This document shows, piece after piece, positions 6,877 to 7,864 of a stretch of DNA of 11,452 bases. The position numbers and the translations under genes were made by a program. The stretch covers positions 1 to 11,452 of the IMG/VR virus record IMGVR_UViG_2660238548_000003. One strand, 5' to 3'. The DNA comes from a virus. Taxonomy: Duplodnaviria; Heunggongvirae; Uroviricota; Caudoviricetes. The notes under the pieces were generated by a model, which saw only the letters and a list, made by a program, of their open reading frames with translations, had not been told where the DNA came from and searched no databases. Numbering within the stretch: position 1 is the stretch's first letter; each line of letters begins with the position of its first letter.

Positions 6877-7086
6877 ATGGCTATTGCCGCAAGTTACACC
6901 ATGCATCTCTACTGTGATTGTCGCCAGTGTACAAATGGTAAATATCAGTCACCAGACTTCGGTGAGTATATAGGTACGTCATGGGCTGGCTGTGCAAAAG
7001 AGGCGCGCAAGGATGGCTGGCGAATAAGCAAAGACAAAACGCGTGCTTTTTCACCCGGGCATAAAGTTTTGAGGATTAACAAATGA
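6877..7086 (+). CDS. Hypothetical Cys-rich small protein, 69 aa
   Basis: Track ORF 6769..7086 trimmed to ATG 6877 (AAAGGAG 6 nt upstream), which starts 1 nt after the previous stop. Product MAIAASYTMHLYCDCRQCTNGKYQ... Confidence 0.5.
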   Translation: MAIAASYTMHLYCDCRQCTNGKYQSPDFGEYIGTSWAGCAKEARKDGWRISKDKTRAFSPGHKVLRINK

Positions 7087-7322
7087 CAACATTTACCGAC
7101 GACGACAAGAAACTAATTAAAGAAATCAAAGAGCGTATCAGCAGCCTGGAGGTTCGAGACGATATTGAGCGCCGGGCTTATGAAATAGCGTTAGCCTCGC
7201 TGGAAGCAGAGCCGGTGGCATGGCTGCATTCAGACAATGGCTTAGGTATTCCGGCAATAACGAGGAGTAAAAACATTGCTGACAGTTATCAAAGAGCTGG
7301 TATGTTCAGCCGCTATATATAG
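7083..7322 (+). CDS. Hypothetical protein, 79 aa; possibly the N-terminal part of a gene split by a frameshift
   Basis: Track ORF 7083..7322. ATGA overlap with the upstream stop and GAGGA 8 nt upstream. The downstream ORF is open in another frame across 7283-7322. Confidence 0.5.
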   Translation: MTTFTDDDKKLIKEIKERISSLEVRDDIERRAYEIALASLEAEPVAWLHSDNGLGIPAITRSKNIADSYQRAGMFSRYI

Positions 7323-7330
7323 CCAAGCCA

Positions 7331-7864
7331 GTGCCGGTGGTGCCAGATGCTCGTCCGTCTTTAAATAATGGCATAGTCGGCTTTGATGAAGGCTGGAACG
7401 CCTGCCGCGCCGCCATGCTTCAGTCCGGAAACTTTCGGGAAAACAAGAATTCGTCAACCAATAATTTTCGGGAAATCTCGGAAACGTCAACCAACTCTCC
7501 GGTAATTCCTGGTGAGGTGTTGTCCGCAATCCTGAAGTTTGCCAGAGTTCGTGCTGATTTCGATGATTTTGACGGTGACAGGCGAGGTATCGGTGATTGT
7601 CTGGATGAGGCCGAGCAAGAGCTTATCGTTACCATTAACAAATATGCCAGTCAGTTGGCAGTAGAGCCGGTAGTACCTGATGACGTTCTGGAACAGACAG
7701 TAGCGTCGCCCGCGCCAGGTAACCAGGTTAGCGAATTAACAATGTGGGTTAAACGACTGGCTCACTGCTTAAAGTACGCCAATAGCTTAAGCAGCTTGCC
7801 TGATAAGGCGATGGAGTATCTGAATCAGAATGGGCTGATAAGCGCGGAGGATATCATGCGGTGA
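7331..7864 (+). CDS. Hypothetical protein, 177 aa; possibly the C-terminal part of the same split gene
   Basis: Track ORF 7331..7864. Only a GTG start with no Shine-Dalgarno; the frame is open from 7283 and overlaps the end of the 7083..7322 ORF. Confidence 0.45.
   Translation: MPVVPDARPSLNNGIVGFDEGWNACRAAMLQSGNFRENKNSSTNNFREISETSTNSPVIPGEVLSAILKFARVRADFDDFDGDRRGIGDCLDEAEQELIVTINKYASQLAVEPVVPDDVLEQTVASPAPGNQVSELTMWVKRLAHCLKYANSLSSLPDKAMEYLNQNGLISAEDIMR

Follow-up and report, generated by a model that had tools for sequence, protein, structure and literature searches.

A 4-nt deletion and the probable frameshift decay of an accessory gene in a mosaic lambdoid prophage of Escherichia coli

We analysed a stretch of viral DNA of 11,452 nt (positions 1 to 11,452 of the IMG/VR record IMGVR_UViG_2660238548_000003), which is called the window below. 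Two adjacent open reading frames in the window, ORF1 and ORF2, are very probably the two parts of a single accessory gene in a lambdoid prophage, which was split by a 4-nt deletion and is now a frameshifted pseudogene. The pseudogene status of this locus is already known. In the genome of E. coli strain 6817, RefSeq/PGAP presents it as a single CDS (KIL86_RS11845, NZ_CP075003.1 2360734-2361515) that is marked as pseudo and 'frameshifted' and is named 'DUF551 domain-containing protein', and strain 00_3230 carries the same PGAP annotation. The DNA of KIL86_RS11845 is 100% identical to that of the window, its boundaries are the same, and it has been given the same verdict of a single frameshifted gene. 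The record is silent on the lesion, which is pinned here to a 4-nt deletion at 7284-7288. The features of the locus are collected in Table 1.

Table 1. Features of the split gene and of its repaired product (nucleotides are numbered as in the window, residues as in the repaired protein)
Feature	Position	Strand	Basis or remark
Cys-rich 69-aa gene (MAIAASYTMHLYCDCRQCT...)	6877-7086	+	directly 5' of the split gene; ATGA overlap with ATG 7083
Shine-Dalgarno-like GAGGA for ATG 7083, 7 nt upstream	7071-7075	+	sequence, motif scan
Very probable frameshifted pseudogene, whole (mosaic lambdoid-prophage accessory gene)	7083-7864	+	PGAP on the identical locus; collinearity with the unbroken ORF of E. coli Z1323CEC0003 (L005, 269 aa)
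ORF1, N-terminal fragment, 79 aa, ATG start	7083-7322	+	ORF list, translation
Deletion junction, 4 nt missing	7284-7288	+	DNA alignments with Z1323CEC0003, 2H10, SKA5 and ev017
C-terminal part of the ancestral gene (193 codons), shifted to the -1 frame	7285-7864	+	translation, PHROG matches, protein alignment
GTG called as the ORF2 start; internal Val codon without Shine-Dalgarno	7331-7333	+	8 nt past the ORF1 stop
ORF2, 177 aa, GTG start called	7331-7864	+	ORF list
N-module	residues 1-116		phrog_5117, E = 9e-32 (1-116); also phrog_660 and phrog_60
Middle module	residues 104-226		phrog_14306, E = 7e-54
C-terminal module	residues 207-261		phrog_924, E = 9e-14; also the C-terminus of phrog_660

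The two reading frames and the missing bases

The list of open reading frames confirmed the coordinates and lengths that the first-pass annotation had given for ORF1 and ORF2. Relative to ORF1, the frame of ORF2 is -1 (7083 mod 3 = 0; 7331 mod 3 = 2). Translation of 7280-7864 gives a TGA at 7280-7282, after which the frame is open from 7283; the 40-nt overlap of the two frames (7283-7322) claimed earlier is thereby borne out. Of 20,000 shuffled versions of 7283-7864, none kept the frame open. Chance does not account for the open frame, and the evidence from homology is far stronger than that from the shuffles. The first 68 residues of ORF1 are native, and the last 11 (YQRAGMFSRYI, 7287-7319) are read out of frame and ended by the TAG at 7320-7322.

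Comparison with intact genes located the lesion. The sequence GACAGTTGGTTATC of the intact genes is replaced by GACAGTTATC at positions 7281-7290 of the window. Three independent alignments give a single clean 4-nt gap at this site and none elsewhere. Thus, the 1-nt indel proposed in the first-pass annotation is actually a 4-nt deletion, with the net shift still being -1. The missing bases can be written as GTTG, TTGG, TGGT or GGTT. Putting GTTG back after position 7284 yields one ORF of 786 nt, which encodes 261 aa and has one terminal stop. Because the missing bases lie inside a GTT..GTT microhomology, replication slippage is the most likely cause of their loss. Such an event would have removed 4 bp (GTTG) at codon 68-69 and would have pushed all of the downstream sequence into the -1 frame. 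Translation initiated at ATG 7083, which has a Shine-Dalgarno motif and ATGA coupling to the gene before it, would then give a 79-aa product of 68 native and 11 missense residues and stop at the TAG. The 193 remaining codons would still be open solely because the mutation is recent, and the C-terminal part could probably be expressed just by inefficient termination-reinitiation across 8 nt without a Shine-Dalgarno motif. The deletion allele is fixed in one E. coli prophage lineage.

The signals around the junction were compared with those of the neighbouring genes and of the intact relatives. No motif of the AGGA, GAGG or GGAG type occurs in the 20 nt before GTG 7331 (cgctatatatagccaagcca) or before the alternative GTG 7337. 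A motif of this type is present at each of the seven further annotated starts examined in the block, which agrees with the earlier observation that the GTG differs from the other starts of the block. In intact homologues, the bases GTG CCG GTG GTG encode an internal VPVV of the linker (...AKPVPVVP...). Since GTG 7331 is an internal Val codon in the intact relatives, ORF2 has no conserved N-terminus of its own, a feature that would have spoken against a single ancestral gene. The TAG of ORF1 is an out-of-frame reading of CTA TAT ATA GCC, and these codons are also present in intact homologues. To judge from the sequences, both GTG 7331 and TAG 7320-7322 are fortuitous and not evolved signals.

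Intact relatives and the ancestral form

A megablast search against phage genomes showed that many lambdoid and Stx phages have matches across the boundary between ORF1 and ORF2 (window 7082-7422, about 92% identity). The matching region of phage 2H10 is one CDS of 206 aa, and that of phage SKA5 is one CDS of 269 aa labelled 'Ea22 protein'; both run through the junction. Four complete E. coli genomes from chickens give a one-piece match from the upstream gene to about position 7669, with 95.4% identity and 4 bases longer than the query. In one of these four, E. coli Z1323CEC0003 (L005 3211-4020; cluster P0003/P0004), an uninterrupted ORF of 269 aa is collinear with ORF1 and ORF2 from start to stop. 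This intact allele has the same upstream 69-aa gene with the ATGA coupling as the window, and its first ~590 nt are about 95% identical. Unlike the window, it contains the GTTG, and its last ~200 nt are a mosaic segment that has diverged and carries an insertion of 24 nt. PGAP annotates this copy merely as partial fragments. Together with the repaired ORF, the single-ORF homologues of 269 and 206 aa bear out the single ancestral gene of about 260 aa that had been proposed.

The same picture was obtained on a larger scale. When the first 119 residues were back-translated and used to search IMG/VR, 246 related loci were found. The best 80 were taken and 75 of them could be parsed; the ORF reads through the junction in all 75, with total lengths of 148-269 aa. 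At least 120 contigs of IMG/VR contain the exact intact junction, as a 24-mer, and a search of IMG/VR for the exact deleted junction, as a 20-mer, returned 0 contigs. Among the sampled complete E. coli genomes that match 7083-7420 at full coverage, the match is longer by 4 nt (by 3 nt in the CFT073 type, described below) except in the window's own lineage. A search with the repaired protein gave 6,786 homologues at E <= 1e-5. Among the best 120, most are 200-400 aa long and most span ~77% or more of the repaired protein; 18 of these hits were aligned, and the alignment is continuous through ...NIADSWLSKGWYVQPLYIAKPVPVVP...GWNACRAAML.... Single-ORF versions are therefore not only found among the relatives but are the norm, and homologous loci do not consistently consist of two genes with the same boundaries.

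The single-base variants of the IMG/VR relatives were also counted by frame. On the 5' side of the deletion, the ratio of synonymous to non-synonymous variants is 40:18 in the frame of ORF1, as against 9:49 and 6:52 in the other frames. On the 3' side, where the sites are few, it is 8:9 in the frame of ORF2 and 4:13 in each other frame, which weakly favours the frame of ORF2. A codon-level synonymous/non-synonymous count against the allele of Z1323CEC0003 has very few differences to draw on. Taken from these comparisons, the intact single ORF is the norm, and the deleted state of the window is derived and rare.

Modular make-up of the protein and its prophage setting

By PHROG profiles, the repaired protein of 261 aa is a mosaic, and all of the matched PHROG families are of unknown function. 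Besides the module matches listed in Table 1, phrog_660 (E = 2e-41) matches the protein at both its N- and C-terminus, and phrog_60 (E = 3e-28) covers residues 1-244. The codons in the frame of ORF2 hold the rest of the N-module up to GWNACRAAML, the middle module (phrog_14306) and the C-terminal module (phrog_924/660). The repaired gene would thus encode an N-terminal helical or small alpha-beta module, a proline-rich linker, the junction motif GWNACRAAML and two C-terminal modules. In this family, GWNACRAAML is the point at which different N- and C-terminal modules are joined. It is followed directly by a stretch of low complexity in which NFRE is repeated (GNFRENKNSSTNNFREISETSTNSP), at window 7415-7500 (+), residues ~113-140.

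Scans of ORF1, ORF2 and the repaired protein against Pfam and NCBIfam gave no significant family, and the intact protein of Z1323CEC0003 had no Pfam or NCBIfam match either. In databases, the relatives are labelled 'Eaa', 'Ea22' or 'DUF551 domain-containing'. The DUF551 domain (PF04448) was found neither in the repaired protein nor in ORF2. The 2H10 relative does have it (residues 137-203, E = 6e-18), but there it belongs to a C-terminal module missing from the window's gene. The name 'DUF551' in the RefSeq record is inherited from relatives that share just the N-module, and it is misleading.

An AlphaFold2 model was built for the intact homologue P0004 from an alignment of 20 sequences. The mean pLDDT was 48.6 and the pTM 0.26, and only the N-terminal ~80 residues were moderately confident. 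In that part, three helices (6-20, 27-40 and 63-71) and three strands (46-50, 58-60 and 75-79) are predicted. The model weakly suggests that the N-terminal unit is broken within its last helix and loses its last strand, and that GTG 7331 lies in a low-confidence linker.

The modular design of the split gene resembles that of the Ea22-type proteins of the exo-xis region, and some of its relatives are labelled 'Ea22' or 'Eaa' in phage records. Ea22 of lambda and Stx phages has a short N-terminus, a helical region and interchangeable 'portable' C-terminal domains, such as DUF551, with mosaicism at the level of the gene (PMC10834534). However, the split gene and its intact homologues lack the Pfam domain Ead_Ea22 (PF13935), which gave no match for the repaired protein, for the protein labelled 'Ea22' (L003) or for that of Z1323CEC0003 (L005), whereas the neighbouring ORF 4853-5467 has it. 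The split gene also differs in position, being downstream of the replication genes instead of between exo and xis. The pro-lysogenic role of Ea22 in lambda is not transferable to it.

The window corresponds to the early-right part of a mosaic lambdoid prophage of E. coli. Its genes follow one another in the order of a CI-like repressor, Cro/CII-like genes, replication gene O, a DnaC-like loader, a block of small accessory genes, a P63C-domain protein, DUF968 and RusA, and the split gene sits in the block of small accessory genes. The Cys-rich 69-aa gene has a homologue in phage ev017 (L001 3252-3503), which lies directly 3' of the related gene there and not 5' of it as in the window. Because this gene is upstream in one phage and downstream in the other, small accessory genes have apparently been reshuffled between phages.

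Several other genes of the window are called in different ways by different sources. The ORF at 4853-5467 (+) is uninterrupted and encodes 204 aa, with a Pfam Ead_Ea22 match at residues 3-111 (E = 2.8e-26). PGAP marks 4853-5137 alone, as a partial pseudogene 'missing C-terminus'; the ORF is probably another mosaic junction and not a true truncation. At 5714-6319 (+), the sources disagree on the start site: some pipelines call a GTG-started ORF of 201 aa and PGAP just a 103-aa ORF at 6008-6319. The 201-aa form has a precomputed match to PF27050 (Phage_P22_Y8K6), but a local Pfam scan gave none. At 9065-9187 (+), PGAP calls a CDS of a Hok/Gef-family toxin in an identical genome. An Rfam scan of the window at the gathering threshold gave no hok/sok-type RNA and no other family.

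A second split allele and the alternative readings

The homologue in phage ev017 (L001 2487-3292) is also split, by a 1-nt deletion in a TATATATA run, into parts of 84 and 172 aa. The lesion changes TATATATAGCC to TATATATGCC and lies 35 nt downstream of the deletion site of the window; the GTTG is intact. The same arrangement is found in E. coli CFT073, ABU 83972 and ATCC 25922 and is common in UPEC genomes. Match-length arithmetic places the CFT073-type split in several complete genomes, and its 1-nt deletion was seen in 4 of 120 IMG/VR loci. RefSeq/PGAP keeps the two halves of the ev017/CFT073 type as hypothetical proteins and not as a pseudogene. Like the window's gene, this allele combines a related N-module with the middle module and consists of an N-terminal fragment of ~80 aa and a C-terminal fragment of ~170 aa in the -1 frame. 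It differs in that the lesion is independent and that the linker and the C-terminal end are not the same.

The existence of two independent deletions within 35 nt, which both separate the N-module from the C-terminal modules with the same -1 relation and whose alleles have each spread in a lineage, raises the idea that the breaks are not neutral. Selection in resident prophages would then uncouple or silence the full-length protein and keep a low-level C-terminal product driven by reinitiation. We consider this highly doubtful. By our own arithmetic, two such lesions would fall this close together by chance in about 9% of cases, and we read them as the kind of decay that is ordinary for a dispensable prophage gene.

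It is very improbable that the locus holds two real genes, in which a 79-aa peptide and a 177-aa protein, the second translated by coupling (termination at 7322, reinitiation at GTG 7331), have been maintained or favoured by selection. The gap of 8 nt between stop and start has a geometry compatible with termination-reinitiation, and the frame of ORF2 is intact over 193 codons. The homologue of the UPEC genomes is cut at almost the same place, and the C-terminal part from about GWNACRAAML onwards is called as a separate protein elsewhere, namely as the 172-aa protein of ev017/CFT073 and as P0054 (177 aa, 30 contigs). In the weak AlphaFold2 model (mean pLDDT 48.6), the linker that contains GTG 7331 is probably flexible, and the C-terminal helices are left whole. 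However, the GTG stands without a Shine-Dalgarno motif, unlike the other starts checked in the block, and both it and the TAG are ordinary codons taken out of their context, being present in intact homologues too. The split also cuts through the conserved N-module, with the predicted helix 63-71 and strand 75-79 being lost, and the intact form is overwhelmingly the norm. With two lesions in a gene of ~800 nt expected this close by chance as often as calculated above, their recurrence is not significant. Some residual function of ORF2 may be conceivable, and nothing supports the translation of ORF2.

Programmed -1 ribosomal frameshifting or transcriptional slippage within 7283-7322 could in principle restore some of the full-length protein. 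Programmed frameshifts commonly go in the -1 direction, which is the one needed here, and both frames are open over a shared stretch of 40 nt. But ORF1 contains no X XXY YYZ heptamer anywhere, and the sole homopolymer nearby, A5 at 7269, lies 5' of the -1-frame TGA at 7280. The Rfam scan at gathering scores gave no family in the window that could be invoked for recoding. The homologues are single-frame, so no recoding signal is conserved among them; the sole other split allele has a different lesion. Judged by these features, programmed recoding appears to be effectively refuted, with next to no probability left to it.

The exact protein of ORF1, which exists only with the deletion, was found on 276 contigs, and the index of the assembly collection lists it in 306 blocks, mostly draft contigs of 5-20 kb. 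Over the 782 nt, deletion included, a single SNP (7655 T/G, Leu to Val) is all that was seen to vary between the window, three draft assemblies (L087-L089) and two complete genomes (L004, L006). In two more complete genomes, the region has the same length and an identity of 100% and 99.9%, respectively. A sequencing or assembly artefact, in which the true genome would have GTTGGTT and an intact gene, is thus excluded for practical purposes, because the deletion is shared by these many contigs and by the five copies compared base by base, and because the missing bases lie outside any homopolymer.

The reading that is left as by far the most probable is that of one gene split by a 4-nt deletion. 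The region 7083-7864 is best annotated as one pseudogene and not as two hypothetical proteins. The split adds nothing new on mechanism, and its importance goes little beyond correct annotation. The exact 4-nt deletion could mark this prophage lineage, and the locus serves as an example of the decay of accessory genes in mosaic lambdoid prophages.
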